Shown one piece after another: positions 1 through 40,230 of a stretch of DNA of 64,000 nt. The notes under the pieces are model-generated. The model saw nothing but the letters and a program-made list of their open reading frames with translations. It was not told the DNA's origin and made no database searches. A program made the translations under genes and the position numbers. Position 1 is the stretch's first letter; every line of letters starts with the position of its first letter. The stretch comes from Desulfomicrobium sp. (GTDB taxonomy: Bacteria; Desulfobacterota; Desulfovibrionia; Desulfovibrionales; Desulfomicrobiaceae): positions 64,001 through 128,000 of the forward strand of contig JAXGMI010000003.1 of the NCBI GenBank assembly GCA_040768745.1, written 5' to 3'.

Positions 1-968
1 GGTGGAATCATCGTCAGCCGGCTCTTGTTTCCCTTGCCGAACTGCACCGCAAGTTGAAGCCGCTCCAGATCAACATCCCTCACCCGCAGTCGCAAAAGTT
101 CGGACAGGCGCAAACCCGAGGCGTACATAAGTTCCGCCATCAGTCGATGCGTTCCATCCATCGAGGCGAAAAGACGGGCACATTCGTCCGAGGACAGCAC
201 GGTCGGCACCTTCCGACCACGTCGCGCACGGGTAAAATCACCAAAGTCCCCGGGCTCGCGATTGAGGACCTCACGGAAAAAGAAAACCACGGCGTTCAGT
301 GCCTGGCTCTGGGTGGCTACGGATACTCGCTCCTTGACGGCCAGATCGGACAGCCAGCGGCGAACATCGCCATGACTCAATTCCACGAGAGGTTTATTTC
401 CGGAAAAGGCCATGAAGCGCCGACACCATGAGCGGTATGTTTTCTCGCTGTTCCAGGCCAGGTTTTTTTCACGAATCCGTCGCACCAGCGTTTGCTCCCA
501 CTCAGGGCCGCCCAACTCACGCGCCCCGGCAGTTGGCACGTCATTCATGGAGTAGACGCGATAGACGTCATGTACCCGGCTGGCTTTTTGTGGCGAAAGC
601 CCTTGTGACGTATCTTGGGCCGGAACTGGTTCGATTTTGCGTTCAGCACTGTTTCCGTGACCTTGAAATCCCTTGTTCGACGCGTCACCGCTCGACAAAG
701 ACACATAGTCTCCTGCCATGCGGTTTCGTCCTTCGCGATAGTACCATCGCAATGCCTCTTGTCGGATAGCGAAGCGCTGAGGCGAAAGATAGGATTGTTT
801 CCAATCGAGGTGTTCTTTGAAGACTGCGGCGCATGCGGTTTTTCCAGTCTCGCGAAGCCAGTGTCTGAATTTGATGATGGACTCGCGGTAGACCCGCTGC
901 CGATCTGACGGGACAACTTCCGCCAAAACGTGCTCCCAATCATCAAAAGAGATTACGGTTGCGTCCAT
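1..968 (-). CDS. intI: Integron integrase (partial, 3' end beyond window)
   Basis: Manual translation from ATG 968 (RBS GGAGGGG) is open to the edge: WEQTLVRRIRE..EKTYRSWCRRF..VSVATQSQALNAVVFFFREVL..RKVPTVLSSDE..LMYASGLRLSELLRLRVRDVD..GKGNKSR. Not in the ORF track because it has no stop in the window. Confidence 0.92.
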   Translation of the reverse strand, partial: MDATVISFDDWEHVLAEVVPSDRQRVYRESIIKFRHWLRETGKTACAAVFKEHLDWKQSYLSPQRFAIRQEALRWYYREGRNRMAGDYVSLSSGDASNKGFQGHGNSAERKIEPVPAQDTSQGLSPQKASRVHDVYRVYSMNDVPTAGARELGGPEWEQTLVRRIREKNLAWNSEKTYRSWCRRFMAFSGNKPLVELSHGDVRRWLSDLAVKERVSVATQSQALNAVVFFFREVLNREPGDFGDFTRARRGRKVPTVLSSDECARLFASMDGTHRLMAELMYASGLRLSELLRLRVRDVDLERLQLAVQFGKGNKSRLTMIP

Positions 969-1182
969 CTCCCCTCCGGGGGCTATTCGGTGATTTCAAG
1001 CACAAGCTTTCACGACCACATAAACATGACTTGAGTCAAAACATAAAGCTGACTTCAACGTCAAGTAGCAGCAGTATACGAGGGATAATATTCTAAAATA
1101 CAAAGACATCGTCGTTGACAAATAATTGACTAAGCGCGTAGGGATCGGAGAAAAAATTGAGACTGCCATTTGGGCGAAGTCC

Positions 1183-1202
1183 GGATAATAACACTGTTCG
1201 TT
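1183..1202 (+). other. attI site (crossover G|TTCGTT at 1196)
   Basis: GGATAATAACACT-GTTCGTT just upstream of cassette 1; GTTCGTT is near-complementary to AGCGAAC at the start of the first attC. Confidence 0.65.
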
Positions 1203-1769
1203 TAAAGATAACGAGGTGATTCATGGCAAATTTATTTTGGAAAAAAGATGGAGTAACCAAAAGTCTTCTATCTACACCCTTCAAGACTGAAGAAGAATTT
1301 GAAAAAGAAATTTTCAACACTCGTGAAATTCTAGAAGACATATTTCTAATTAAGCGTCAAATACGCGGTGGAAACAAAAATGGAATACCAGATATTGTCG
1401 GTATAGATAATGATGGCAATATTTGTATTATAGAAATGAAAAATGTCACGGTTGATGCATCCATAATTCCTCAAGTTCTCCAATACGCCTTTTGGGCAGA
1501 AACTAATCCAGATTCAATAAAATCATTATGGCTTGAGTGTGATAACAAGCCAGACGACATCGCCATTAGCTGGGATAGCTTTCAAGTGAGAATCATTGTT
1601 ATTGCACCATCAATCTTGCGCTCAACATTAGACATTGTTGATAAGATAAACTACCCTGTTGACCTTATAGAAGTAAAAAGGTGGGTTGAAGAAAAAAACT
1701 CATTATATCTTGTTAATAAATTGGAAACTGTGTATCGGTCTACGGTTTTTTGGACACGTTTTTGGTTAA

Positions 1770-2660
1770 TCAAGCCGCAACGTTCACGGCCTCTTTCTGG
1801 ATGGCCCGCACCGCTGCCGGAGTCTTGTAGCCGTGGCGTCCAATGATCCATTCCCGGTTGTACGTCTCCTTGAACTCCAAGAGGGCAAGTCGGAGTTCCT
1901 CGACCGTATCGAACCGCCGGACCCAGAGCAGGTTTTCCTTGAGCGTGCGCACGAACCTCTCGGCGATGCCGTTGCCTTGGGGTTCTCTGACGAAAGCAGG
2001 CGAACTCCGGATGCCCAGGAAGGAAACCTCCTCTTGAAACACACTGGAAACGTACTGGCTACCATTGTCATGTCGCAGGGTCAGGCCCTCTGCCACGGCG
2101 GGTCCAAAGGCTCCAAAGCTGTGGCGCACACCTTGGCGAATCGGCTCCAGGGCTTCAAAGCGCGTCCCGTACTTAGCGGCGTGGATGCCGACACACTCCA
2201 GAGAGCAGTGGTCCACGGCCAGGAAGATCGAAGCGTTGCCTTCCTGCATGGTCATCGTCGTGGTCATGTCCGTGCCCCACATCTCGTCCACCCGGGCAGT
2301 CTTGATCGTCCCGTCATGCGCCTTGGGGCCATGCGGCCTGCCGGGCTTGCGCACTGCGAGCAGGTTGTTCTCTCTCATGATCCGAAGCGTTCGCAGGGGG
2401 GACGTTCTGATGCCCTCAAAACGCAACCTGGCCCACACTTTCCGATAGCCTTCACCAGTAAAAGGGGAGTTCTGGATGCATGCCACGATGTGCCCGAACA
2501 ACTCCCCATCACTGTGGAAGCCAATAGGGCCTCGGCGGCTTGGTGTGCCCTCATTCGCAACCTTGCGTGCATAATGCGTGGACCTGGGGAGATTCCAGAC
2601 CCGGCAAACCAGCACCAGCCCATACGTCTGACCAGTGGAGGGCGAGGTGGACCGGCTCAT
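1770..2660 (-). CDS. IS3 transposase OrfB (DDE/rve domain)
   Basis: GYRKVWARL, WGTDMT, LRHDNGSQY, PQGNGIAERFVRTLKE motifs. Confidence 0.93.
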   Translation of the reverse strand: MSRSTSPSTGQTYGLVLVCRVWNLPRSTHYARKVANEGTPSRRGPIGFHSDGELFGHIVACIQNSPFTGEGYRKVWARLRFEGIRTSPLRTLRIMRENNLLAVRKPGRPHGPKAHDGTIKTARVDEMWGTDMTTTMTMQEGNASIFLAVDHCSLECVGIHAAKYGTRFEALEPIRQGVRHSFGAFGPAVAEGLTLRHDNGSQYVSSVFQEEVSFLGIRSSPAFVREPQGNGIAERFVRTLKENLLWVRRFDTVEELRLALLEFKETYNREWIIGRHGYKTPAAVRAIQKEAVNVAA

Positions 2661-3046
2661 TTCCTCGACCTCCGCAACCCCAAAGGGTCTTTTGCCTCCA
2701 TCATTCGGATCTTCTCGCGGAGCAGTTCTATCTCCATGGTCTGCTCGCCGATTTTCTCATTGAGGCGCTTGTATTCGGCCTCCTCCGCCGGAGAGCGTTT
2801 TTTGAGACTATCCGCGCCACCGGCCAGAAAGGCATCTCTCCATTGTGAGAGCGTGGCAGCCGTCACGCCGAGTTCCCGACTGAGCGTTTCGATGTCTTCA
2901 CCACGCAGAAGCCGGAGGACGGCCTCGGTCTTGTGCTGTGCCCAGAATCGCTTGGGAGTTGCCTTCGTCTCCCCGGTTCCAGTCGGCCTACGGCCTCCCT
3001 CCACCGGGGAGACGGCTGAAATATCCTTGTCGCTTTGTTTGCTCAT
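2657..3046 (-). CDS. IS3 transposase OrfA (HTH)
   Basis: KTEAVLRLLRGEDIETLSRELGVTAATLSQW HTH plus coiled coil; ATGA overlap with orfB. Confidence 0.9.
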   Translation of the reverse strand: MSKQSDKDISAVSPVEGGRRPTGTGETKATPKRFWAQHKTEAVLRLLRGEDIETLSRELGVTAATLSQWRDAFLAGGADSLKKRSPAEEAEYKRLNEKIGEQTMEIELLREKIRMMEAKDPLGLRRSRK

Positions 3047-3527
3047 GAATCACCTCATGGGGAGTCTCTCTACTCCCAATTTGGTGTCCAAGAAAACCCT
3101 ATCCCAGAGGAACTGATCCAAAAGTATCTCGCATCAAACCAACATCAGGAATGGAGGAGTATAACGAGGAATTCTATAAAAAAGAGTACAATAAAAATAG
3201 TGCCATTGAATTTATCAAATACGCCAAGGAAGTTGAAAAGTTTGTCGCGAAAAAGGATTGGAATTTAGAAACAAAATTTAACAAACATTATTGTGGCTTC
3301 AAAGCTGGCTTCTTCAATGCTTTCGGCATTCAGTGGATTGGTACTAAAACTTTTGCTCTTTTCTTTAAGCTACCGGAAGATGAGGCCAAGAGCACAAAAA
3401 TACAAATGACGAAATACGAATCTCAATGGAAGCAAGCTGTTTATTATATTGAACCTGGAAAAACGAAAATCAGTGATTATGAACCACTTTTTGATTTGGC
3501 CTATAAGAAATTGACAGGAAATTGAAA

Positions 3528-3588
3528 AGCGAACAAGGCGCTCAAGCCGATCGCCGCTTCGCGGCTCAGGCTTAGCTCTGCGTTATGT
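3528..3588 (+). other. attC site 1 (61 bp)
   Basis: R'' AGCGAAC, L'' GCTCAAGCC / L' GGCTTAGC with one extrahelical base, R' GTTATGT. Confidence 0.9.
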
Positions 3589-3613
3589 GGTTCGAGCAAT
3601 TTGAGGTACAGAT

Positions 3614-4564
3614 ATGCAATTTGGGAAAATACACAAGCTGAGTCCAAGAGACATATGGCCCAAAGAGGCAAAGGATTTCACACCTTGGCTTGCCGACAAC
3701 ATCGGAGCGCTTGGTGAAGCCCTTGGAATGGAACTTGAGCTGAAGGAAACCGAAGCGGCTGTTGGGGATTTCTCATTGGATCTATTGGCAAAGGACTTGG
3801 GTTCCGGCCACACTGTAATAATTGAGAACCAATTGACTCAAACAGATCACGATCATCTCGGCAAGCTGCTGACGTATGCAGCCGGTTTCGGCGCATCAAC
3901 AGTGGTATGGGTTGCTGAAGTTGTGCGAGATGAACATAGACAGGCTTTGGAGTGGCTAAATCAGCGGACTGACGAAGACACTCAGTTTTTTGGAGTTGTT
4001 GTTGAGGTCTTCAAGATTGACGATTCTAAACCCGCCTACAGCTTTAAACCGGTCGTTTCTCCAAGCGAATGGCAGAAATCAAGAAAAAGGCAAGCTATCG
4101 AAACTGTCTCCGCGAAAGGAGAGATGTACCGTAATTACTTCCAGGCATTGATTGATGAGCTTAGAGAAAAACACCAGTTCACAAATGCGAAGGTTGGGCA
4201 ACCTCAGAATTGGTATTCCTTTTCTTCTGGCATTTCTGGCATCACTTTTGGCGCTGTCTTCGTGCAAGGGGGCAAGGCACGTACTGAGTTTTACATAGAC
4301 TTTGGCGAAGGTGAGAAGAACAAGGCATTGTTTGATTGGCTATACGATAAAAGAGACGAAATTCACTCGAAATTGGGTAAAGAACTCGAGTGGGAACGTC
4401 TTGATGATAAGAGGGCTTCACGCATTGCGGTCTATAGGGACGGTTCAATTCAATCCAGTGAAGCCGAGCTAATGGAAATTAAGGCCTGGCATGTTGAAAA
4501 TCTTATCAATTTCAAGAGGATCTTGACTCCTCTTATAAAGAAAGAGATCAAGGTACATGCGTGA
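3614..4564 (+). CDS. Cassette 2: DUF4268-domain protein with N-terminal PD-(D/E)XK-like domain
   Basis: EAKDFTPWLADN, DFSLDLLAKD..VIIENQLTQTDHDHLGKLLTYAAG; C-terminal LEWERLDDKRASRI typical of DUF4268. Confidence 0.85.
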   Translation: MQFGKIHKLSPRDIWPKEAKDFTPWLADNIGALGEALGMELELKETEAAVGDFSLDLLAKDLGSGHTVIIENQLTQTDHDHLGKLLTYAAGFGASTVVWVAEVVRDEHRQALEWLNQRTDEDTQFFGVVVEVFKIDDSKPAYSFKPVVSPSEWQKSRKRQAIETVSAKGEMYRNYFQALIDELREKHQFTNAKVGQPQNWYSFSSGISGITFGAVFVQGGKARTEFYIDFGEGEKNKALFDWLYDKRDEIHSKLGKELEWERLDDKRASRIAVYRDGSIQSSEAELMEIKAWHVENLINFKRILTPLIKKEIKVHA

Positions 4565-4566
4565 CC

Positions 4567-4657
4567 GCATAACCCGGCATTCAACCGGACGCGGAACACA
4601 GTTTGTTTTATTTTCCCCGGCGTTTTGTGCGCCGCGCCGGTTAATTTTGTGTTAGGC
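4567..4657 (+). other. attC site 2 (91 bp)
   Basis: R'' GCATAAC, L'' ATTCAACCGG / L' CCGGTTAAT, R' GTTAGGC. Confidence 0.9.
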
Positions 4658-4691
4658 AGACCCTGCGGGCGGCAATCCTAAGGAGTTAATT

Positions 4692-5795
4692 TTGAGATAC
4701 TTCATAGACCTGTTTTCTCCTCAAACATTCTCAAAATTCTTAGCTTCAGATAAAAGCATTTCTGGATATGGGAAGAGACAGGAGGGAATTGCAAGTACTA
4801 TAAAAAAGGGAGACCTGTTTATCTGTTACTTAACCAAGGTTTCCCGATTTTGTGGCATTTTAGAGGTCCAAGATAAGTATCTCATAGACTCTACTCCTAT
4901 CTTCACAGATGAAGACGATCCATACATTGTTAGATTTAAGGTAAAACCAATCGTCCTTTTGGATATAGATAAGTCTATTCCGATATTTGAAGATATTCTT
5001 TGGAAAGAACTACATTTTACTCAGGATAAAATGTGGACATCAATGATTAGGTCGAGCCTACGGGAATTAAATGAACATGATGGAAAGATATTGATAAATG
5101 CCCTTATGAATCAAATCGGAGATAATGCAAAGCAGTATCAATTAACAGAGGTAGATCAGAAAAAGCTTAAGCTCCAGAAGCATACCGTAAAGACTCATGA
5201 AAAAGTAATAACTGTTTCTGTTCCAGAAAATGAAACCGACAATAAGAACTCGGTAACCGAAGATATTGAGGTAAGAGAATCAATTAAGATACAAGCAGAA
5301 TTGGCAAGAATTGGTGATCAAATGGGAATGAAAATATGGATTCCTAGATCTGATCGCCAACGAGTATTATTATATTTAAAGGGTAAATTTGACAGTTTTG
5401 TTGATAGTCTTCCTCTAAACTATGACTCAACCACATTAACTACAATTGAGAATATAGATGTCCTATGGCTTAAAGGAAGATCAATTATAAGAGCTTTTGA
5501 GGTTGAACATACAACATCTATATATTCAGGAATTTTACGAATGGCAGATTTAATGGCTTTGCAGCCAAATCTTGATATTAGGGCTCACATTGTTGCCCCA
5601 GAAGAAAGAAAGGAAAAGGTTTTTCAGGAAATAACTAGACCGGTATTCTCTTTACTAGAAGGTAGACCACTTTCAGAAAGATGCACATTTATTTCATATG
5701 ATTCTGTTCTCGAATTAGCAAAGGAAAAGCGATTGCAATATATGAATGACATGGTTTTGGAAGAGTATCAAGAATATGGATCAGAAGATGCCTAA
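4692..5795 (+). CDS. Cassette 3: EVE(PUA-like)-domain + PD-(D/E)XK endonuclease-like protein
   Basis: N-terminal IKKGDLFICYLTKVSRFCGILEV..DPYIVRFKVKP; C-terminal IDVLWLKGRSIIRAFEVEHTTSIYSGILRMADL; TTG start with AAGGAG RBS. Confidence 0.78.
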   Translation: MRYFIDLFSPQTFSKFLASDKSISGYGKRQEGIASTIKKGDLFICYLTKVSRFCGILEVQDKYLIDSTPIFTDEDDPYIVRFKVKPIVLLDIDKSIPIFEDILWKELHFTQDKMWTSMIRSSLRELNEHDGKILINALMNQIGDNAKQYQLTEVDQKKLKLQKHTVKTHEKVITVSVPENETDNKNSVTEDIEVRESIKIQAELARIGDQMGMKIWIPRSDRQRVLLYLKGKFDSFVDSLPLNYDSTTLTTIENIDVLWLKGRSIIRAFEVEHTTSIYSGILRMADLMALQPNLDIRAHIVAPEERKEKVFQEITRPVFSLLEGRPLSERCTFISYDSVLELAKEKRLQYMNDMVLEEYQEYGSEDA

Positions 5796-5890
5796 CAAAC
5801 GCTTCAACTGGACTCGGTGCCCTGAAGCCTAGACCTACGGACGCTAGCCTGGAAACACAGGTACCTCGCCAGTTAAGCGAAATGTTCGGC
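5790..5890 (+). other. attC site 3 (101 bp)
   Basis: R'' GCCTAAC overlapping the stop codon, L'' CGCTTCAACTGG / L' CCAGTTAAGCG, R' GTTCGGC. Confidence 0.9.
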
Positions 5891-5906
5891 AAAAAGAAAC
5901 AACGAC

Positions 5907-6602
5907 ATGAACACACCATGGCAATACAATGAAACGGCTCAGGTAGGAACTGACTACTGCAACGAGAGCGAAGTCGCTGCGTATGACGAGCGGATGCAGA
6001 AACTTCGCAATACGGGTGCCGAGGCAACAGACATCGCAAAAGCTCTGAACCTCTCGGCAGACTCAACCGTATGGGAGATCGGTACTGGCACAGGAGAGTG
6101 CGCCATTGCCCTCTGTGATGTGGTCAAACATGTCTACGCCACGGATGTTTCTCCGGCGATGCTTGAGTGCGCCCGGCGAAAAGCGAACCAGCGCGGTATT
6201 ACGAATATCACGTTTGCAAATGGAGGGTTCCTGTCAGGATTCCGTCCTGATCATTCCGTAGATGGGGTCGTCACTCAACTGGCATTGCATCACCTCCCGG
6301 ACTTTTGGAAGTTTAGAGCCATTTCAGCAATCGCAAACAGTCTTCGTCCCAAAGGGCGTCTATATCTTCGCGATGTTGTTTTCTCTTCGGCAACTGTTGA
6401 TTACGATGCCTTCTTCCAAGTTGTAATAGAGGGTGTTAGATCAAGCGCAGGCGACGATGTGGCAGAGCAAACGGTACAGCACATCAAGACCGAGTTTTCG
6501 ACACTGGATTGGATCCTTGAAGGAATGATCGAGCGCAATGGATTGACCATCGTCGAAAGAAGACAGGAAGGATTCCTGTCGGTCTATATCTGTGAAAAAT
6601 GA
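5907..6602 (+). CDS. Cassette 4: class I SAM-dependent methyltransferase
   Basis: VWEIGTGTG motif I, ATDVSPAML, ALHHLPD, LRPKGRLYLRD. Confidence 0.9.
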   Translation: MNTPWQYNETAQVGTDYCNESEVAAYDERMQKLRNTGAEATDIAKALNLSADSTVWEIGTGTGECAIALCDVVKHVYATDVSPAMLECARRKANQRGITNITFANGGFLSGFRPDHSVDGVVTQLALHHLPDFWKFRAISAIANSLRPKGRLYLRDVVFSSATVDYDAFFQVVIEGVRSSAGDDVAEQTVQHIKTEFSTLDWILEGMIERNGLTIVERRQEGFLSVYICEK

Positions 6603-6604
6603 AA

Positions 6605-6665
6605 GCCGAACCATGCCCTCCTGCGTACGTCGCTATCGCGCCGCCGCAGAGAGCTGACGTTAGGT
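6605..6665 (+). other. attC site 4 (61 bp)
   Basis: R'' GCCGAAC, L'' CTCCTGCG / L' CGCAGAG, R' GTTAGGT. Confidence 0.85.
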
Positions 6666-6682
6666 GGCAGCAGGAAAGTACA

Positions 6683-7132
6683 ATGAATCTCTTAGAAAAG
6701 CTGTTCCGTTCTAAATCTCCGAAACTTCAAAAGGCATCCGGTGAGTTCAAAACTTCGGGAGAGTTAATTGCCGAAGTAACGGACGGAGCAAATCTAGTAG
6801 AAGGTCAGCAAACTTGGGAAGTTGCCGAAGAAAAGAAGCACGATTTAGAAGCAATGAAAAAGTGCTGTGATGCAGAGCTTAAAACAATGGCAACAGCAGA
6901 CATCGTTGCCGCTCCCTATTACTTTGAACGCGTTGCTATTCTTTCCCGCAAAGATAAAAACTATGCTCAAGAAATTGCGTACTGTGAGAAATATATTCAG
7001 TTAGTAGAGGCCTACTACCGTAAGCACGGCACAACAGGTATTGCTGATGTTCGTAAAGGCCCACGGTTCCAGGCTATTCAAAAGCGACTACCCAAAGCCA
7101 AGGAGCTTTTAGCTCGTGCCAATGCCACCTAA
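6683..7132 (+). CDS. Cassette 5: hypothetical helical (TPR-like) protein
   Basis: ATG 6683 lies inside the cassette (track start 6599 crosses attC4); APYYFERVAILSRKDKNYAQEIAYCEKY helical-repeat-like motif. Confidence 0.75.
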   Translation: MNLLEKLFRSKSPKLQKASGEFKTSGELIAEVTDGANLVEGQQTWEVAEEKKHDLEAMKKCCDAELKTMATADIVAAPYYFERVAILSRKDKNYAQEIAYCEKYIQLVEAYYRKHGTTGIADVRKGPRFQAIQKRLPKAKELLARANAT

Positions 7133-7222
7133 CAATTCAATCAACCTGACCGCCCAAAGCTACGCTTTGGGTTCCCTCCGTTGCTGCGCAACTCCGGCGG
7201 CAGGTTATTTCCAACGTTAGGC
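7127..7222 (+). other. attC site 5 (96 bp)
   Basis: GCCACCTAAC is the exact reverse complement of the cassette start GTTAGGTGGC; L'' ATCAACCTG / L' CAGGTTAT; R' GTTAGGC. Confidence 0.92.
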
Positions 7223-7241: not shown

Positions 7242-7275
7242 TTGACAATCGGCCACCATGTGATTACATTGTAAT
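7242..7275 (+). promoter_or_regulatory. Sigma70 promoter and operator-like palindrome of the TA cassette
   Basis: TTGACA-17 bp-TACATT; ATTACATTGTAAT palindrome overlaps the -10. Confidence 0.75.
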
Positions 7276-7301
7276 TATTATTAGTGTGGCGGAGGTGGCC
7301 T

Positions 7302-7559
7302 GTGAGAGCAAGCATTGTTCGTATCGGAAATTCGCAAGGAATCCGAATCCCGAAAGTGGTGTTGGAGCAAACACAGCTTGAGGGGGAAGTCGAGTTAGAG
7401 GTGAAGGACAGAGAGATTTTGATTCGAGCGGTTTCCAAGCCTCGTCAGGATTGGGCTCAGAAGTTCAAAGCGATGGCGGAAAAAGGGGACGACAAGCTGT
7501 TGGACAGTTCTTCTATTGACCAAACTTCTTGGGACAAGGAAGAATGGGAATGGAAGTAA
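7302..7559 (+). CDS. mazE: Cassette 6: AbrB/MazE-family antitoxin
   Basis: IVRIGNSQGIRIPK motif; GTG start after GGAGG; overlaps the toxin start. Confidence 0.9.
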   Translation: MRASIVRIGNSQGIRIPKVVLEQTQLEGEVELEVKDREILIRAVSKPRQDWAQKFKAMAEKGDDKLLDSSSIDQTSWDKEEWEWK

Positions 7560-7873
7560 AAAGATTCGATGTATTCCTAGTGAATTTAGACCCTACTGTT
7601 GGTCATGAAATAAAGAAAAGTCGTCCCTGTCTGGTGATATCCCCTGATGAGATGAACAAATTCATAACCACTGTGATTGTTGCACCGATGACGACCAAGG
7701 GTAGAGATTATCCAACCCGAGTCTCTTGTGTATTTCAAGGCAAGGAAGGCCAAATTGTTTTGGATCAGATCCGAACTGTGGACAAGGCGAGACTGGCTAA
7801 GCGCTTGGGTAAAATCGACACGGAAACTCAAGTGAAAGTCTTCTCTGGTTTGGCAGAGCTATTTTCGGAATGA
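7550..7873 (+). CDS. mazF: Cassette 6: PemK/MazF-family toxin
   Basis: VNLDPTVGHEIKKSRPCLVISPDEMN..DQIRTVDKARL. Confidence 0.93.
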   Translation: MEVKRFDVFLVNLDPTVGHEIKKSRPCLVISPDEMNKFITTVIVAPMTTKGRDYPTRVSCVFQGKEGQIVLDQIRTVDKARLAKRLGKIDTETQVKVFSGLAELFSE

Positions 7874-7877
7874 AAGG

Positions 7878-7989
7878 GCCTAACTACAGGCTGAAGCTGA
7901 CGGCTCCTTCGTTCACGCCGCTTGCAGTCTATAACTGTCCTTGGCAAGCGGGCGTGCCCTCAACCCGGAGCTTAGCCTGGGCGTTGGGC
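7878..7989 (+). other. attC site 6 (112 bp)
   Basis: GGGCCTAAC complements the cassette start GTTAGGCCC; L'' AGGCTGAAGCT / L' AGCTTAGCCT; R' GTTGGGC. Confidence 0.9.
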
Positions 7990-8004: not shown

Positions 8005-8379
8005 GTGTCAGACCTCAAAGAACCCAGGGTCCTTTTCGCCGCAGAGAGAACGTTGCTTGCTTGGAATAGGACAAGCCTCTCACTGATAGCGTTCGGATTT
8101 GTCGTGGAGCGTGCGGGCCTGCTAATCCAGGCCCTGCGACCCGAGGCCGTTCACCCGCAGCAGCTTGAGCTGACTTTCTGGCTCGGTCTCGCATTGATAA
8201 TGCTCGGGGCAGTTACATCCGCGTATTCAGCCCGGCAATATGGAATCGTCCTGAAGTCGCTGACCCCTGCGGAGTTTCCGCCGGGCTACGCTGCAAGGTG
8301 GGGGTTGGCTGTTAATGTCGTGGTCGCAGTGCTGGGCGCAGCCTTAGCTGGTGTGCTTATTTTCTGGCGCATTACCTGA
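8005..8379 (+). CDS. Cassette 7: DUF202/YidH-family membrane protein
   Basis: PRVLFAAERTLLAWNRTSLSLIAFGFVV; three hydrophobic segments; GTG after AAGGAG. Confidence 0.88.
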   Translation: MSDLKEPRVLFAAERTLLAWNRTSLSLIAFGFVVERAGLLIQALRPEAVHPQQLELTFWLGLALIMLGAVTSAYSARQYGIVLKSLTPAEFPPGYAARWGLAVNVVVAVLGAALAGVLIFWRIT

Positions 8380-8666: not shown

Positions 8667-11261
<2,595 letters not shown>

Positions 11262-15580: not shown

Positions 15581-16741
15581 TTAGAACTTGAAGTTCGTGG
15601 TCTGGCGCCAAGTGTAGTACGCAGGATCGCGGAAGTCGTCGATCATGTGTTCGGAGAACTCAAGACCGCACTTCTCGAAGAAGCGTTCCCAGCCGATGCG
15701 CTCGGCCCAGTCACCAACGCGCTCGTACTTGCGGGCATCCGCGGCATAGGCTTCGACAATCTTGCGGATGGTCTTAGCCAGCGTGGGCCAGCGGGGCGGT
15801 TCGTTGGGGATGAAGGCCACGACGACCTTGGAGAACTTGGGATTGCTGATGCGGTTGGAAACCTTGCCGCCAGCCATGATGACCAGGCCGTCACCGGTCT
15901 GGTCGGACAGGGGCAGCGACGGACACATGGTGTAGCAGTTGCCGCAGAACATACAACGATCACCCTTGATGGCCACGGTGTTCACCGTCTTGGTCTCGCC
16001 GGCTTCCGTGGTGATTTCCTTCTTGGTCGGACGGATGGCGCCCACGGGGCAGGCCGCCACGGCCAGCGGAATTTCGCACAGGTTGTCCAGCCATTCGTGG
16101 TCGATGATCGGAGGTTTGCGGTGGTAACCCAGGATGGCGATGTCAGAGCAATGCACGGCGCCGCACATGTTCAGACAGCAGGCCATGGAGATGCGGACCT
16201 GGGCCGGCATGCGCATCTGCCCGAACTCTTCGAACAGCTCGTCCAGAACGACCTTGACCGTTCCGGAAGCGTCCGTGGCCGGGGTGTGGCAGTGGACCCA
16301 ACCCTGGGTGTGCACGATGTTGGTGATGCCGGCGCCAGTGCCGCCGACCGGGAACTTGTGGCTGCCGCCGGACTGCTTCTGGGAATTCAGATAGTCCTTC
16401 AGCTTCTTGGCCTCGGCCAGGGTGCCGACCATGAATTCGATGTTGTTGCGGGTGGTGAAGCGCAGGTGTCCGCCACAGAACTTGTCGGCGATATCGCACA
16501 GGGCGCGGACATGGCCGACGGACATCAGACGGGATCCGCCGCAACGCACGGTGTACACTTCGTCGCCGCTTTCGGCCTTGTGCATCAGAATACCGGGTTC
16601 ACAGATTTCATGCCACAGCCATTTGCCTTTGTTCTTGGCAATAACAGGAGGAAGGAAATCGGAAAAATGGCGCGGGCCAATATCCGTGATCCTGTTTTCC
16701 ATGGGTTTTTCGGGATTGTATCCGGAAGAGATGAAAGCCAT
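15581..16741 (-). CDS. dsrB: Dissimilatory sulfite reductase beta subunit
   Basis: [10 protein letters not shown] start, [30 protein letters not shown]. Confidence 0.98.
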
Positions 16742-16755
16742 TGTCAACCCCCTTC

Positions 16756-32589: not shown

Positions 32590-35500
32590 ATGACTGAGCA
32601 ACAAATCGAAGATGCCCTGATCGAAAAACTGGTCGATCTCAAATATTCGTACCGCCCGGACATCCGCGACCGCGCAACGCTTGAGCGGAATTTTCGCGAG
32701 AAATTCGAAGGGCTCAACCGCGTCCGTCTCACGGATGCCGAGTTCGCCCGGCTGCTGGGCGAGATCATCACCCCGGATGTCTTCACCGCCGCCAAGACCC
32801 TGCGCAACATCAACTCATTCTCCCGCGACGACGGCACGCCGCTGAACTACACCCTGGTCAACATCAAAGACTGGTGCAAAAACGACTTTGAAGTCAGCCA
32901 TCAGCTGCGCATCAACACGGATTACGGACACCACCGCTACGATGTCATCCTGCTCGTGAACGGCGTGCCCTGTGTCCAGATCGAGCTGAAGACTTTAGGC
33001 GTCAATCCTCGCCGGGCCATGGAGCAGATCGTCGAATACAAGGGCGACCCCGGCAACGGCTACACCAAGACGCTGCTCTGCTTCATGCAGCTCTTCATCG
33101 TCAGCAACCGGGACCGGACCTACTACTTCGCCAACAACAACGCCCGCCACTTTGCCTTCAACGCCGACGAGCGCTTCCTGCCCGTCTATGAGTTCGCAGA
33201 CGAGGCCAACAAGAAGATCACCCACCTCGATGACTTCGCCGAAAGTTTTCTGAAAAAGTGCGACCTGGCCCGGACCATCAGCCGCTACATGGTGCTCGTC
33301 GTCAGCGAGCAGAAGCTCATGAGCATGCGACCCTATCAGGTTCTATGCCGTGCAGCATTTGGTGAAGTGCATCGACGAGGACAACGGCAACGGCTTCATC
33401 TGGCACACCACCGGCAGCGGCAAGACGCTGACCTCCTTCAAGGCCGCCACGCTCTTGAAAGAAAACGAGCACATCCACAAATGCGTCTTCGTCGTGGACC
33501 GCAAGGACCTCGACCGCCAGACCCGCGAGGAGTTCAACAAATTCCAGGAAGGCTGCGTCGAGGAAAACACCAACACCGCCGCCCTTGTCCGCCGCCTGCT
33601 GTCCGAGGACTACGCGGACAAGGTCATCGTTGCCACCATCCAGAAGCTCGGCCTCGCCCTGGATGAAAACAGCAAGCGCAACAGGCAGCGCAGCAAGAAC
33701 GGCCAGCCCACCTTCAAGGAGCAGCTCTCCACGCTCAAGCACAAACGCATCGCCTTCATCTTCGACGAGTGCCACCGCTCGCAGTTCGGGGACAACCACA
33801 AGGCGATCAAAGAGTTCTTCCCCAGGGCGCAGCTCTTCGGCTTCACCGGCACGCCCATTTTTGACGCCAACGCCTCATTGCAGAAGATCGAGGGCACCCA
33901 GGCCTCCATGCGCACCACGGCGGACCTCTTCCAGAAGCAGCTCCACGCCTACACCATCACCCACGCCATCGAGGACCAGAACGTCCTGCGCTTCCATATC
34001 GATTATTACAAGCCCGAGGGCAAAAACCCGCCCAGGCCCGGCGAGGCCCTGGCCAAGAAAGCCGTCATCGAGGCCATTCTCGGCAAGCACGATGCCGCCA
34101 CGGGCGGGCGCCGCTTCAATGCCATCCTTGCCACCGCGTCCATCAATGACGCCATCGAATACTTCGGGCTGTTGGCCGACATGCAAAAAAAGAGGAGTGA
34201 GGCCGATCCGGATTTCAAGCCGCTCAATATCGCCTGCGTCTTTTCCCCGCCCGCTCAGCTCGCCGAGAATGCGGAGGCCAAAAAGGACATCGAACAGCTT
34301 TCCGAAGACCTCCCGCAGGAGCAGGAAGACAACAAGATCGATCCGGAAGCCAAGAAGAAGGCCCTTGAGGCCATCATGGCCGATTACAATGCCCGCTACG
34401 GAACGAATCACGCCTTGAGCGAATTCGACCTCTACTATCAGGACGTGCAAAAGCGCATCAAAGACCAGCAATGGCCCAACGCCGACTATCCCGCCGCCCA
34501 GAAGATCGACATCACCATCGTGGTGGACATGCTGCTCACGGGCTTTGATTCCAAGTTCCTGAACACGCTCTACGTGGACAAGAACCTCAAACACCACGGC
34601 CTCATCCAGGCCTTCTCCCGCACCAACCGCGTGCTGAACAGCACCAAGCCCTACGGCAACATCCTCGATTTCCGCCAGCAGCGGGAGGCCGTGGATGCCG
34701 CCATCGCCCTCTTCTCCGGGGAAAAGACCGGCGAAGAGGCGCGGGAAATCTGGCTTGTGGACCAGGCCCCCGTGGTCATCAGGAAACTGGAGGCCGCCGT
34801 CCAGAAACTGGACGAGTTCATGAAATCCCAAGGGCTCGACTGCGCCCCGGAGGCTGTGCCCAATCTCAAGGGCGACGATGCCCGTGTCGCCTTTATCAAT
34901 CATTTCAAGGAAGTCCAGCGCCTCAAAACCCAGCTCGACCAGTACACCGATCTCTCTAACGACGACGCGGCCGCCGTTGAGCACATACTGCCCAAGGAAA
35001 ATCTGCTCGGCTTGCGTGGCGCGTATCTGGAGACGGCCCAGCGCCTTAAGGCCCAGCAGGGCAAAGGCCCTGACAAGACCAGCCCGGAAGTGGAGCAGGT
35101 GGATTTCGAGTTTGTCCTCTTTGCCACCACCCTCATTGATTACGACTACATCATGGGCCTCATTGCCCGCTTCTCCCAGCAGGCTCCGGGCAAGCAGAAG
35201 ATGAGCCGCGAACAGCTCGTCGGCCTTATCTGTTCCGATGCCAAGTTCATGAACGAGCGCGAAGACATCGCCGCCTACATCGCCACGCTGAAGGCGGGCG
35301 AAGGCCTGGACGAAAAAGCCATCCGCGACGGCTACGTGCGCTTCAAACACGAAAAAGACGCCCAGGAACTGGCGGCCATTGCCAGCAAGCACGGCCTGTC
35401 CCCGGAGTCGCTGCAGGGCTTCGTGAACAGCATCCTCGACCGCATGATCTTCGACGGCGAAAAGCTCAGCGACCTTTACGCCCCCTATGATCTGGGCTGG

Positions 35501-35608
35501 AAAGAGCGCGCCCACAAGGAGGCCGCCCTCATGGAAGACTGCGCCCCGTACCTCGTCAAGCGCGCCGGAGAGCGCGAAATTTCGGGGTTGAGTGCGTATG
35601 AGGAGTAA
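32590..35608 (+). pseudogene. hsdR: Type I restriction subunit HsdR, +1 frameshift at ~33341 (real or sequencing error)
   Basis: YDVILLVNGVPCVQIELK nuclease motif in the first frame; HTTGSGKT, DECH, FTGTP, MLLTGFD in the second; removing one T at 33341-33342 restores RPYQVYAVQHL. Confidence 0.88.
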
Positions 35609-35618
35609 GAAAACATCC

Positions 35619-36782
35619 ATGGTTGCGCAGAATAAACCAGCACCGCCGGTTGTTTCCGGCGACTTTGATTCACTGGTATCTTCCATAGTCCACATCCATC
35701 AGCAATCACAGGCTTTCGCAAGCAAGGCGGTCAACGTCAGCCTCACCCTGCAAAACTGGCTCATCGGCCATCGCATCGTGGAGTTTGAGCAGCTGGGAAA
35801 AGACCGGGCAGCCTATGGAGAAAAATTGCTGCCCGTTTTGGCGAAACGACTATCCGCTGCCGGGCTTAAACGTGTGGATGTTCGCGAGTTGCGCCGCTTC
35901 AGGCTCTTTTATGGCGTTTATCCGCAAATTCGGGAGACAGTGACTCCCGAATTGTTGGATGGACTTGGCGCTGGAGTCTTGCAGCCTCTGGTTAACGCCT
36001 TACCTCTGCCAAAACGGGAGACACTGTCTCCCGAATCCGAGATTGTGGAATCACTGTCCCCACAATTGATCTATCGACTCTCCTTCTCCCACTTGGCCGA
36101 ATTGTTGGACCTCCCCGACGACACCCAGCGCCGCTTCTACGAGATCGAGTGTATCCGCGGAAACTGGTCCGTGCGCGAGCTGCGTCGCCAGATCGCCAGC
36201 CTCTACTATCAGCGCAGCGGCCTCTCCAAGGACAAAGCCAAGCTGTCCGCCATGGCCCACGCGGCAGCGGAGACGCTCCAGCCCGCCCACATCATCCGCG
36301 ATCCCTACGTCTTCGAGTTCCTCGGCCTGCGTTCCCGTGATGTCATGGCTGAATCCGACCTCGAAGATGCCTTGTTGGACCGTATTCAGGATTTCCTCCT
36401 TGAACTGGGCCACGGCTTCTGCTTCGAAGCCCGGCAAAAGCGCATTCTCATCGGCGACGAACATTTCTTCATCGATCTCGTCTTCTACCACCGCATCCTC
36501 AAATGCCACATCCTGGTGGAACTCAAGACCGATGCCTTCCGCCACGAGCACCTGGGCCAGCTCAACACCTACGTCGCTTATTACAAAAAGCACCAGATGA
36601 CCCCTGGCGATCAGCCGCCCATCGGCATCCTCCTTTGCACCCGCAAGAATGACGCCCTCGTCGAGTTCGCCCTCGGCGACTTGAGTAACCAGATCTTCGT
36701 CTCCCGCTATGCCGTCGAACTGCCCCGCAAAGAGGAGATGGAACGCTTCATCGCTCAAATCGGCCAGGAGGTGGGAGCGTGA
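35619..36782 (+). CDS. YhcG/DUF1016-family PD-(D/E)XK protein
   Basis: NWLIGHRIVEFEQ..RAAYG, NWSVRELRRQI, RDPYVFEFLG, FIDLVFYHRILKCHILVELK. Confidence 0.92.
   Translation: MVAQNKPAPPVVSGDFDSLVSSIVHIHQQSQAFASKAVNVSLTLQNWLIGHRIVEFEQLGKDRAAYGEKLLPVLAKRLSAAGLKRVDVRELRRFRLFYGVYPQIRETVTPELLDGLGAGVLQPLVNALPLPKRETLSPESEIVESLSPQLIYRLSFSHLAELLDLPDDTQRRFYEIECIRGNWSVRELRRQIASLYYQRSGLSKDKAKLSAMAHAAAETLQPAHIIRDPYVFEFLGLRSRDVMAESDLEDALLDRIQDFLLELGHGFCFEARQKRILIGDEHFFIDLVFYHRILKCHILVELKTDAFRHEHLGQLNTYVAYYKKHQMTPGDQPPIGILLCTRKNDALVEFALGDLSNQIFVSRYAVELPRKEEMERFIAQIGQEVGA
35927..36066. repeat. Three in-frame palindromic repeats inside the yhcG-like gene
   Basis: AATTCGGGAG..CTCCCGAATT (35927-35953), CGGGAGACA-C-TGTCTCCCG (36015-36033), ATTGTGG..CCACAAT (36042-36066). 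Confidence 0.85.
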
Positions 36783-38065
36783 GCAGGAAGACGAAAACCA
36801 CCGCCACGAAGGAAGAGGCAAGGCCCGCGCTGGTGCCGAAGCTGCGGTTTCCGGAGTTTCGGGGGGCGGAGGGGTGGGAGCAGGTTCCGCTGGGCCAACT
36901 TGCTGATCGTGTCACAGCGAGAAATCTTGAGGGCGATTGCACCCGCGTGCTGACCAACTCGGCAGAACGCGGCGTTCTTGATCAACGCGACTACTTCGAG
37001 AAGGATATTGCGACTGCTGGAAACCTTGAAGGTTATTATGTCGTCAATCGAGGTGACTATGTCTATAATCCGAGAATTTCCAACGTCGCACCCGTCGGGC
37101 CGATTTCAAGGAACAATATCGGCCAAGGCGTGATGTCGCCGCTGTACACAGTCTTTCGATTCAAAAGCAAAAACACAGACTTCTACTCGCATTACTTCAA
37201 GACGACCTGCTGGCATTCCTATTTACGACAAGTCGCGAGCACGGGCGCGCGACATGACAGGATGAGTATCTCGATTGGCGATTTCGTGGCGATGCCGCTC
37301 CCGGTATTGTCCTCCGCCGAACAACAAAAAATCGCCGAGTGCCTGAGTTCGGTGGACGAGCTGATGGTCGCGCAAGCGCGGAAAGTGGACGCACTCAAGA
37401 CCCATAAAAAAGGCCTGATGCAGCAGCTTTTTCCCCGCGAAGGCGAAACTGAGCCCCGCCTCCGCTTCCCCGAATTCCAAAACGCCGGGGAGTGGGCGAA
37501 GGATTCAATGCAGGGTGTTTTTGTTTTTCGGCAAGGACTTCAGGTCGCTATTGAACATCAATTCATGGAGGATGGAGATGGTCGAGAGCGGTTTATTCGT
37601 ATCATTGACGTGACCCAAAACAATGAACCTCCAAGATATATAGCTGTTACAAATAATGCGTATACACTTTCAGTTAACGATCTGTTTATGATTCGCTACG
37701 GCACGCCCGGTGTCGTTTCAATAGGATATGAAGGTGTTATCGCTAATAATTTATTTCAATTGATTTTCAGAATCCAAGAAATTCATTCTCCGTTTTTCTG
37801 GTATTACTTTTTACAGACAAAATATGAAGAAATTTCCGGTCTCTCCGGATCGTCGTCCATGCCCGCCATTAGTTTTAAGACATTAAATAATATCGGAGTT
37901 GAGTACCCTTCTCTTCCCGAACAAAAACGCATTGCCTCGTGCCTGACCAGCCTCGACGCCCTGATCGCCGCCGAAACCCAAAAGCTCGACGCTCTCAAGA
38001 CCCACAAGAAAGGGCTGATGCAGCAGTTATTCCCCTCCGTTGGAGGGGTGGCAGGCGAAGCCTGA
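36779..38065 (+). CDS. hsdS: Type I specificity subunit HsdS
   Basis: Two TRDs bracketed by PxLRFPEF and EQxxIAxCL..LKTHKKGLMQQLFP repeats. Confidence 0.95.
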   Translation: MSRKTKTTATKEEARPALVPKLRFPEFRGAEGWEQVPLGQLADRVTARNLEGDCTRVLTNSAERGVLDQRDYFEKDIATAGNLEGYYVVNRGDYVYNPRISNVAPVGPISRNNIGQGVMSPLYTVFRFKSKNTDFYSHYFKTTCWHSYLRQVASTGARHDRMSISIGDFVAMPLPVLSSAEQQKIAECLSSVDELMVAQARKVDALKTHKKGLMQQLFPREGETEPRLRFPEFQNAGEWAKDSMQGVFVFRQGLQVAIEHQFMEDGDGRERFIRIIDVTQNNEPPRYIAVTNNAYTLSVNDLFMIRYGTPGVVSIGYEGVIANNLFQLIFRIQEIHSPFFWYYFLQTKYEEISGLSGSSSMPAISFKTLNNIGVEYPSLPEQKRIASCLTSLDALIAAETQKLDALKTHKKGLMQQLFPSVGGVAGEA

Positions 38066-38187
38066 CGGGGTGGTTAAATGGCACAACGAGACCTGAAAGC
38101 AACCACCCCGCCCCTGCGGGGCACCCCTCCAGAGGAGGGGAATTTAACTATCCCCCCCTGCGGCCTACCTCTCCAGAGGCGAGGAAT
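38029..38187. repeat. REP-like palindromic elements (inverted pair plus degenerate third copy)
   Basis: ATTCCCCTCCGTTGGAGGGGTG..CGGGGTGGTT (38029-38075) vs AACCACCCCG..CACCCCTCCAGAGGAGGGGAAT (38101-38143); decayed copy 38147-38187. Confidence 0.8.
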
Positions 38188-38580
38188 GCTCGGCACACTA
38201 GAAACTATCTGTCATTGCCATTCAATCCTCACTTGAAAGAAAGGGCGAAGGTGTTGCGCCGGGCGGGTAATTTGTCCGAAGTGCTGCTTTGGAATCAGCT
38301 CAAAAAGGGGCAGTTCAAAGGGCTGGATTTCGACCGGCAAAAAATCATTGGTGATTACATCGTCGATTTTTATTGTGCCGAGAAAAACGCTGTCATTGAG
38401 GTGGATGGTAGCAGTCACGACGACAAAGCGGACTACGACGCGCAACGCGATGCTTTTTTGGCGGGCTTGGGTCTGCGTGTTATCCACATCCTAGATAAGG
38501 ATGTGAAGCAGGATGTGGCTGCTGTCATGGTCTTTTTGATGCGGCAACTTTTCCCGGCACCGGAGGGAGTGGAAGCTTGA
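38078..38580 (+). CDS. DUF559 (Vsr-like) endonuclease; start ATG 38078 out of frame by one base at a C7 tract
   Basis: LKERAKVLRR..SEVLLWNQLK..FDRQKIIGDYIVDFYC..VIEVDGSSH..DAQRDAFL. Confidence 0.8.
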
Positions 38581-40230
38581 CCGACCTGATTCTCTACACC
38601 ACCGTAAACTCAGTATAAGAGCGCAACAGAGGAAATCATGACCGATACCAACCAAAAACAACTCGGCAACACCCTCTGGAGCATCGCCGACCAACTGCGC
38701 GGGGCCATGGATGCGGATGATTTTCGCGATTACATGCTGTCTTTTCTCTTCCTGCGCTACCTCTCCGACAACTACGAGACGGCGGCGAAGAAGGAACTGG
38801 GCCGGGATTACCCCGATGTGGGCGGGGATGCCCGCAAGGTGCCCTTGGCGCTGTGGTACGCCCTCAACGTGGACGACATCCCAGCGTTCGAGAAACAGAT
38901 GCGGCGCAAGGTGCATTACGTCATCCAGCCGCCGCACCTCTGGAACAGCATCGCCAACCTGGCCCGCACCCAGAACGCGGAGCTGCTGAACACGCTGCAA
39001 GCGGGCTTCAAATACATCGAGGAAGAATCCTTCGAGAGCACCTTTCAGGGCCTCTTTTCCGAGATCGACCTCGGTTCCCCCAAGCTGGGCAAGACCTACC
39101 CCGACCGCAACGCCAAGCTCTGCACCATCATCCAGAAGATCGCCGAAGGGCTGGCCGAGTTCTCGACCAGCATCGACGCCCTGGGCGACGCCTACGAATA
39201 CCTGATCGGCCAGTTCGCCGCCGGGTCCGGCAAGAAGGCGGGGGAGTTCTACACGCCGCAGCAGATTTCCGATATCCTGTCCGGCATTGTCACGCTGGAC
39301 AGCCAGGAACCGAGGACCGGGACCAGGAAACGACTGGAAAATGTGCTGGATTTCGCCTGCGGCTCAGGCTCGCTGCTGCTCAACGTCCGCAAGAAGGTGA
39401 GCACGGCGGGCGGCACCATCGGCAAGATCCTTGGCCAGGAGAAGAACATCACCACCTACAACCTGGCACGCATGAACATGCTGCTGCATGGGGTGAAGGA
39501 CGCGGAGTTCGAGATCTTCCACGGCGACACCCTGCTCAACGAGTGGGACATGATGCGCGAGCAGAACCCGGCCAAGAAGCCGAGCTTCGACGCCGTGGTC
39601 GCCAATCCGCCCTTCAGCTACCGCTGGACCCCGACCGACGCGTTGGCCGACGACGTGCGTTTCAAGAGCCACGGTTTGGCCCCCAAGTCCGCCGCCGACT
39701 TTGCCTTTTTGCTGCACGGCTTCCACTACCTCAGAGACGAAGGGGTCATGGCCATCATCCTGCCCCACGGCGTGCTCTTCCGTGGCGGTGCCGAGGAACG
39801 CATCCGCACCAAGCTTTTAAAAGACGGTCACATCGACACCGTCATCGGCCTGCCCGCCAATCTCTTTTACTCCACGGGCATCCCGGTCTGCATCCTCGTG
39901 CTCAAGAAATGCAAAAAGCCGGGCGACGTGCTCTTCATCAACGCCGCCGAGCATTTTGTGAAGGGCAAGCGCCAGAACCAGCTCGCACCCGAGCACATCG
40001 CCAAGATCATAAAGACCTACCAGCACCGCACCGAGGAAACCCGCTACTCCCGCCGCGTGGAGATGTCCGAGATTGAGAAAAACGACTTCAACCTGAACAT
40101 CTCGCGCTACATCAGCACCGCCCAGGCCGAAGAGGAAATTGACCTGACTGCGGTCAGTGAGGAAATGGTAAGCGCTCAGACATCCGCATTTTCCACGGGC
40201 GTCCCTGACCTGCGATAGAAGCAGGAGTCT

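Follow-up and report, generated by a model that had tools for sequence, protein, structure and literature searches.

Three nuclease-reader fusions lead a chromosomal integron of a sulfate-reducing Desulfomicrobium and are candidate modification-dependent anti-phage enzymes

What do the three nuclease genes at the front of a chromosomal integron in Desulfomicrobium sp. act on, and what does their position behind the attI site signify? The locus lies in a 64,000-nucleotide stretch (the window; positions 64,001 to 128,000 of contig JAXGMI010000003.1, i.e., G000:C3:64001-128000) of a 3.09-Mb genome with a G+C content of 0.60, whose dsrB gene (15581 to 16747; TIGR02066, above the cut-off) identifies the host as a sulfate reducer. 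A first-pass annotation of this DNA had described cassettes 1 to 3 as nucleases, each fused to a different putative DNA-reading domain, and had suggested recent selection for a shufflable set of modification-dependent restriction enzymes. We propose, with a probability of about 0.6, that these cassettes encode three type IV-like (i.e., modification-dependent) anti-phage nucleases with structurally different readers. That each of the three acts against phages or other mobile genetic elements at all, by whatever cue, is highly probable.

The locus is a small sedentary chromosomal integron with an intact integrase (IntI), an attI site, and attC-bounded cassettes. Seven plus-strand cassettes follow attI, and the array ends ahead of clpB. 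An attC with paired R and L boxes lies behind six of the seven cassettes and behind none of 299 host genes, and the core/inverse-core border score reaches 6.5 to 7 of 7 for cassettes 1 to 5 and 7 (host control, 3/436 genes; cassette 6 falls beyond the 50-nt search range of this test). The border test was used instead of a strict attC heuristic, which missed cassette 1 and under-called homologous cassettes (1/70 non-self loci); a generic repeat search did not reveal the attC sites. Cassettes 1 to 3 contain a single open reading frame (ORF) each and, as the first-pass annotation had stated, no methyltransferase. The PD-(D/E)XK-like motifs that it had pointed out can be read directly in all three, and structure searches found nuclease folds. 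The AT richness that it had seen in cassettes 1 and 3 is borne out by G+C contents of 0.34 and 0.35 (cassette 2, 0.455), and the PADLOC search that it had proposed returned defence candidates for all three proteins.

The gene of cassette 2 (3614..4564, plus strand; 316 aa; attC at 4567..4657, 91 nt) encodes a NucS-like nuclease followed by a DUF4268 domain (residues 171 to 306; PF14088, E = 2.5e-27), and its best PDC-S11 model (PDLC04911; E = 1.1e-116) covers residues 2 to 310 of 316. The NucS-DUF4268 protein MdgA degrades modified T4 DNA and requires E77 (Rodriguez-Rodriguez et al., PMC12366544), and Madara, the renamed PDC-S11, restricts T4 with glucosyl-hydroxymethylcytosine, not T4(C), and is inactivated by D63A (bioRxiv 10.64898/2026.09.05.749240). 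DUF4268 is also part of the GmrSD type IV enzymes (PMC4619093). Like MdgA and Madara, cassette 2 is a single gene with an N-terminal NucS-like PD-(D/E)XK domain and a C-terminal DUF4268, without a methyltransferase, and shares their PADLOC family. MdgA has 375 aa and the motif D63...E77-N-K (numbered from the gene start in the supplement), a numbering that D63 of Madara appears to fit, whereas cassette 2 has 316 aa and D56...E71-N-Q73 (i.e., E-x-Q). The cassette-2 family occurs in 12 of 401 phylum genomes, with ENQ in 11 of the 12 (a clade of ~315 aa), and 66 plasmid records carry homologues. Against L185, which served as a stand-in for the tested MdgA/Madara nucleases (374 aa; E-N-K; PDLC04913 clade), cassette 2 aligned at 34% over 89 aa and at 35% over 111 aa. 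A lysine in a downstream helix was considered as compensation for E-x-Q and rejected, the site being K or Q across the clade. Since both domains are homologous to those of MdgA and Madara, cassette 2 would be expected to work alike, though it lies outside the tested clade; its dependence on modification is quite likely.

Cassette 1 is split by an insertion sequence (IS). The 5' part of its gene (1223..1730, plus strand) encodes a NucS-like PD-(D/E)XK nuclease with the motif P56-D57...E71-M-K73 (E-x-K), and the 3' part (3116..3525, plus strand; attC at 3528..3588, 61 nt) encodes a putative reader with a YjbR/MotA-CTD/frataxin-like, DUF5655-like fold. Together, the two parts cover the PADLOC PDC-S18 model PDLC04944 end to end (positions 1 to 168 and 173 to 307 of 307). 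PDC-S18 was predicted from its embedding in defence loci (Payne et al., bioRxiv 10.1101/2024.01.29.577857); the whole model is matched here. To that prediction, the present analysis adds a fold for the reader and the fusion of this domain with TIR, kinase, and GIY-YIG partners. Such fusions of the C-domain occur elsewhere in P0292, P0298, P0300, P0383, and P0381, with GIY-YIG, a HipA/PI3K-like kinase, an HSDR_N-like nuclease, TIR, and a carboxypeptidase-regulatory-like domain as partners. The first-pass annotation had named the second domains DUF5655-like, DUF4268, and EVE; the last two were recovered (E = 2.5e-27 and 4.2e-6), and a Pfam scan of the cassette 1 protein gave no match to PF18899 (DUF5655). 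One of the 20 proteins scanned, the homologue P0250, matched DUF5655 below the cut-off (E = 1.3e-4; 22.4 bits against 24), and the C-domain has an Atlas DUF5655 score of 0.85, which is a lead only; the DUF5655-like label is therefore only partly supported. McrB-N was not among the 50 structure matches listed for cassette 1, which excludes nothing. The profiles of cassettes 1 and 2 compared with a probability of 9.8 and an alignment limited to the nuclease core. A hypervariable or swapped reader was rejected, as the C-domain merely diverges faster than the nuclease. The cassette-1 family was found in 5 of 401 phylum genomes, and no relatives are encoded in the phage records searched. We regard modification dependence of cassette 1 as an even question.

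The element within cassette 1 belongs to the IS3 family (1731..3111, minus strand; 1381 bp; orfA, 2657-3046; orfB, 1770-2660; NF033516, E = 2.6e-40), is flanked by a 4-bp target duplication (ACTG; 1727-1730 and 3112-3115), and is one of a near-identical set, of which the genome holds 10 full copies (BLAST, 99.7-100%). The cassette 1 frame reads on into it as a 207-aa ORF (1223-1846), and this nuclease fragment, which lacks the reader, is the most that cassette 1 can yield here. By separating nuclease from reader, the element has probably inactivated cassette 1 in this genome, and it may also lower read-through into cassettes 2 and 3, as would be plausible by the polarity described for integron-borne defence cassettes (BRiCs). 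The reading frame of the homologue P0121 is uninterrupted, and in each of three DNA runs, drawn from three studies, cassette 1 stands without the IS directly behind attI; in one contig of these runs, cassette 2 is joined behind the intact cassette 1. Depth varied among the cassettes in the metagenome contigs and an RNA run had gaps, neither of which was counted towards frequency or expression. A preference of the IS for defence genes was unsupported, with the other copies at unrelated or intergenic sites. At G000:C1:696382-700282, the 5' portion of a large, presumably glycyl-radical-like gene is duplicated and enclosed by two facing copies, and a further copy at G000:C2:648169-649547 interrupts a gene that we take to encode a TRAP-like transporter. 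Among the homologues, one that is 92% identical to cassette 1 has an oppositely oriented group II intron reverse transcriptase inside its attC (L087:1041-2800), and at L158-L160 and L162 the genes that precede the homologues are those of a type III Res-like helicase, a stand-alone EVE protein, and an OST-HTH protein. At L113:5253-6650, a PDC-S18 gene precedes a PDC-S11 gene (E-x-Q-clade model), in the order of cassettes 1 and 2, in AT-rich DNA without cassette borders.

Cassette 3 (4692..5795, plus strand; 367 aa; TTG start; attC at 5790..5890, 101 nt) combines an EVE/YTH-like domain (residues 1 to 143), a disordered linker (165 to 191), and a restriction-endonuclease-fold domain (194 to 360). 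The latter is a PD-(D/E)XK domain with conserved acidic residues (E253/D256...E270-V-E272; i.e., E-x-E). Sequence searches against solved structures found none with the single sequence and only EVE proteins with a profile, and EVE/YTH matches occupied the Foldseek list. The family was not found in the 24 other genus genomes searched, and plasmids carry only its nuclease half (178 records, none at 80% coverage). EVE-nuclease type IV enzymes are known (the EVE-HNH enzymes VcaM4I and TspA15I, and YenY4I; PMC6765204; PMC7897488), and an EVE-PD(D/E)XK class was already predicted to act in type IV restriction (PMC7641849). In comparison with these, cassette 3 joins EVE directly to PD-(D/E)XK, its E-x-E motif is invariant, and it has no DUF3427. 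We consider its modification dependence likely.

The genes adjoining the homologues point to defence. Adjacent genes of at least 130 aa were dereplicated, cut to 520 aa, and compared with PADLOC at E<1e-20. Matches were found for 17/90 genes next to cassette-1 homologues (16/90 minus a group II intron reverse transcriptase) and for 17/140 next to cassette-3 homologues (140 of 141 genes), versus 6/130 control genes at least five genes away in the cassette-3 loci (a random 130 of 215). This enrichment (p = 0.002 for cassette 1 and 0.03 for cassette 3), which answers the defence-island check proposed in the first-pass annotation, is to be read with the PDC models having been built from defence-embedded genes, with simple ORF calling, and with kin that are not independent. 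The matches include type I, IIG, and III restriction-modification (R-M) genes, BREX BrxL, Gabija, and PDC-S11. No neighbour is conserved across the 80 and 84 homologue loci, and the methyltransferases that adjoin homologues belong to mixed type I/II/IIG/III systems. Type I enzymes and further N6/N4 methyltransferases are encoded by the host itself, and no C5 methyltransferase match was found in its genome, which would suit readers of cytosine modifications that do no harm to self.

In the mechanism that we propose, the readers (YjbR/MotA-like, DUF4268, and EVE) would recognise phage DNA on its entry by binding to a modified base, and the bound reader would recruit or dimerise the PD-(D/E)XK domain, which would then cut that DNA. 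No methyltransferase would be needed, because the host DNA would lack the mark. Modified cytosines would be the likeliest targets, since the host has N6 methyltransferases and no C5 methyltransferase was found.

The first-pass reading of a recently selected, well-expressed set of modification-dependent nucleases is supported in part. Modification-dependent activity is published for relatives of cassette 2; unlike MdgA and Madara, cassette 2 belongs to an E-N-Q sister clade and is an integron cassette. Recent selection found no support: cassette 1 is IS-disrupted here and stands first in populations from three studies, which is no fresh strain-specific gain. Best expression of these cassettes found none either, and a promoter scan ahead of attI returned no consensus cassette promoter (Pc). 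A TTGACA hexamer (1115..1120, plus strand) lies ~80 nt ahead of attI, with a counterpart in the orthologous integron of the same-genus genome G422, and is a candidate -35 of Pc; it has no consensus -10 and was not called by the scan.

The three genes might be anti-phage or anti-plasmid nucleases of which two or more respond to a cue that is not a base modification. Such a cue might be the ends or structure of DNA, as for Shedu, a host-rare sequence motif, a phage protein, or, for the EVE protein, RNA; abortive infection is a possible mode of action. We consider this unlikely: both tested PDC-S11/DUF4268 relatives are modification-dependent, and a sequence-specific enzyme would require a methyltransferase, which does not accompany the homologues. 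Less likely still is that cassettes 1 and 2 are NucS/EndoMS-type nucleases for the repair of mismatches or damage. NucS/EndoMS is indeed the best structural match of cassette 1, and the NCBIfam NucS model matches as well (E = 4.2e-8), but its 32.6 bits fall far short of the cut-off (216), and only the catalytic part is spanned (128 to 199 of 250 model positions). The N-terminal domain of NucS lies outside this match, the families are patchily distributed (5/401 and 12/401 phylum genomes), and defence genes neighbour the homologues; repair is very improbable.

A different kind of alternative, which we rate as improbable, grants that the enzymes are of the defence type and explains their grouping at the front by historical chance or cost-driven decay instead of an expressed, selected set; in this strain the locus would be largely silent, with cassette 1 knocked out by the IS and a polar effect on cassettes 2 and 3. 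Polarity and cost are common among defence cassettes, and promoter-distant cassettes protect little (Kieffer et al., 10.1101/2024.07.02.601719; Darracq et al., 10.1101/2024.07.02.601686). The IS in cassette 1 is antisense to the cassette genes, and the equal platform of G422 holds four other cassettes behind attI, all different from those here, with no PADLOC match (0/4) and one PIN7. The chance of all three nucleases leading, given three among seven cassettes, is 1/35, a post hoc value that makes the grouping only mildly improbable. Set against this are the intact cassette 1 behind attI in all three DNA runs, the cassette 2 attached to it in one contig, and the intact ORFs of cassettes 2 and 3. 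The ten IS copies lie at unrelated sites, and the insertion in cassette 1 therefore needs no selection. This alternative concerns ecology rather than biochemistry and can be combined with the three cassettes being type IV-like nucleases.

A bolder extension of the type IV-like reading is possible, and we put it forward tentatively. The C-domain of cassette 1 (DUF5655-like and related to YjbR/MotA/McrB-N) might sense modified phage DNA as a portable, hitherto unrecognised module that serves nucleases, TIR domains, and kinases, and the array might be a reorderable type IV panel with orthogonal readers (double-wing, DUF4268, and EVE) and distinct active sites (E-x-K, E-x-Q, and E-x-E), aimed at hypermodified phages of anaerobic digesters. 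Should the cassette-1 reader bind modified DNA, it would be a new sensor class, usable to map base modifications, and type IV nucleases would be linked with TIR and kinase effectors. The locus offers three compact candidate modification-dependent nucleases (PDC-S18, an EVE fusion to an E-x-E nuclease, and a further clade of a tested family) and, in cassette 1, a natural allele pair of IS knock-out and intact gene.

The platform includes intI, whose 5' part lies in the window (1..968, minus strand; TIGR02249 as best match, E = 6.6e-48 on this part) and whose whole ORF is open (G000:C3:63526-64968; 480 aa). IntI is present in 2 of 25 genus genomes, and the G422 orthologue (90% identity) occupies the same locus. 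Here, IntI has ~150 additional N-terminal residues ahead of its SAM_4 domain; in G422, the equivalent 5' region is apparently deleted or frameshifted. The attI site (1173..1202, plus strand; crossover G1196|T1197) has the core GTTCGTT, which pairs 6.5/7 with the cassette-1 inverse core AGCGAAC. Its position at 1196 follows from the G422 integron, in which the 24 nt up to G|TT are identical to this locus and the sequence diverges thereafter.

Behind the three nucleases, cassette 4 (5907..6602, plus strand; attC, 6605-6665) encodes a class I SAM methyltransferase of the small-molecule/protein type (top Pfam, Methyltransf_25/11/31/12; top NCBIfam, CpaM), and was rejected as a DNA methyltransferase partner on these matches; its PADLOC mad2 match (E = 2.3e-21) is confined to the SAM-binding stretch. 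Cassette 5 (6683..7132, plus strand; attC, 7127-7222) encodes a conserved hypothetical protein with no Pfam or NCBIfam family, Atlas scores of 0.97-0.98 to unnamed clusters, and weak TPR-like leads, and is a possible additional defence candidate. Cassette 6 (7284..7873, plus strand; attC, 7878-7989) is a MazEF-type toxin-antitoxin pair (PF04014, PF02452) preceded by a promoter-like site of its own (7242-7270), and cassette 7 (8005..8379, plus strand) encodes a DUF202 membrane protein (PF02656), with an inverse core and a truncated attC. The boundary gene clpB (8667-11261) is on the minus strand. In two of the DNA runs, a different attC stands ahead of cassette 6, and one run has a weakly supported joint of 4650 to 7216; no excision circle was seen. 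Elsewhere in the window, a type I R-M locus (32590-40215) with an embedded PDC-S02 gene has an apparently frameshifted hsdR (two overlapping frames, 32590-33666 and 33350-35608), and downstream of it lies an IS (40231-42529) that we take to be IS66-like. Two tandem near-identical blocks at ~47900-58600 presumably are rRNA operons, which their ORF-like translations resemble.

The literature searched, which consisted mostly of open papers, yielded no experiments on PDC-S18, the E-x-Q clade, or the cassette-3 EVE family, no comparable three-fusion array in a sulfate reducer, no occurrence of the term PDC-S18, and no pairing of PDC-S11 or PDC-S18 with integrons; a search for DUF5655 returned nothing related. 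That integrons are reservoirs of defence genes, as the first-pass annotation stated, is already published. Darracq et al. and Kieffer et al. describe nuclease cassettes of one gene, their activation when placed first, and a naturally occurring array of three defence cassettes; further integron screens have been published too, and the stocking of defence nucleases seen here confirms that concept. The published defence integrons are those of Vibrio and of class 1, whereas the present one is a seven-cassette array with three consecutive reader-nuclease fusions, which would extend integron-borne phage defence to sulfate reducers. The genes of cassettes 1 to 3 already fall within PADLOC models or a predicted class; what is new is the putative cassette-1 reader and its fusions. 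A related design, a NucS-like nuclease with a C-terminal modification sensor and modular swapping of sensors and effectors, is that of the END nucleases, such as END-Mag (bioRxiv 10.1101/2025.03.31.646159). The sensor there is an inactive EndoIII/Ogg domain, whereas the cassettes would use YjbR-like, DUF4268, or EVE domains in this role.

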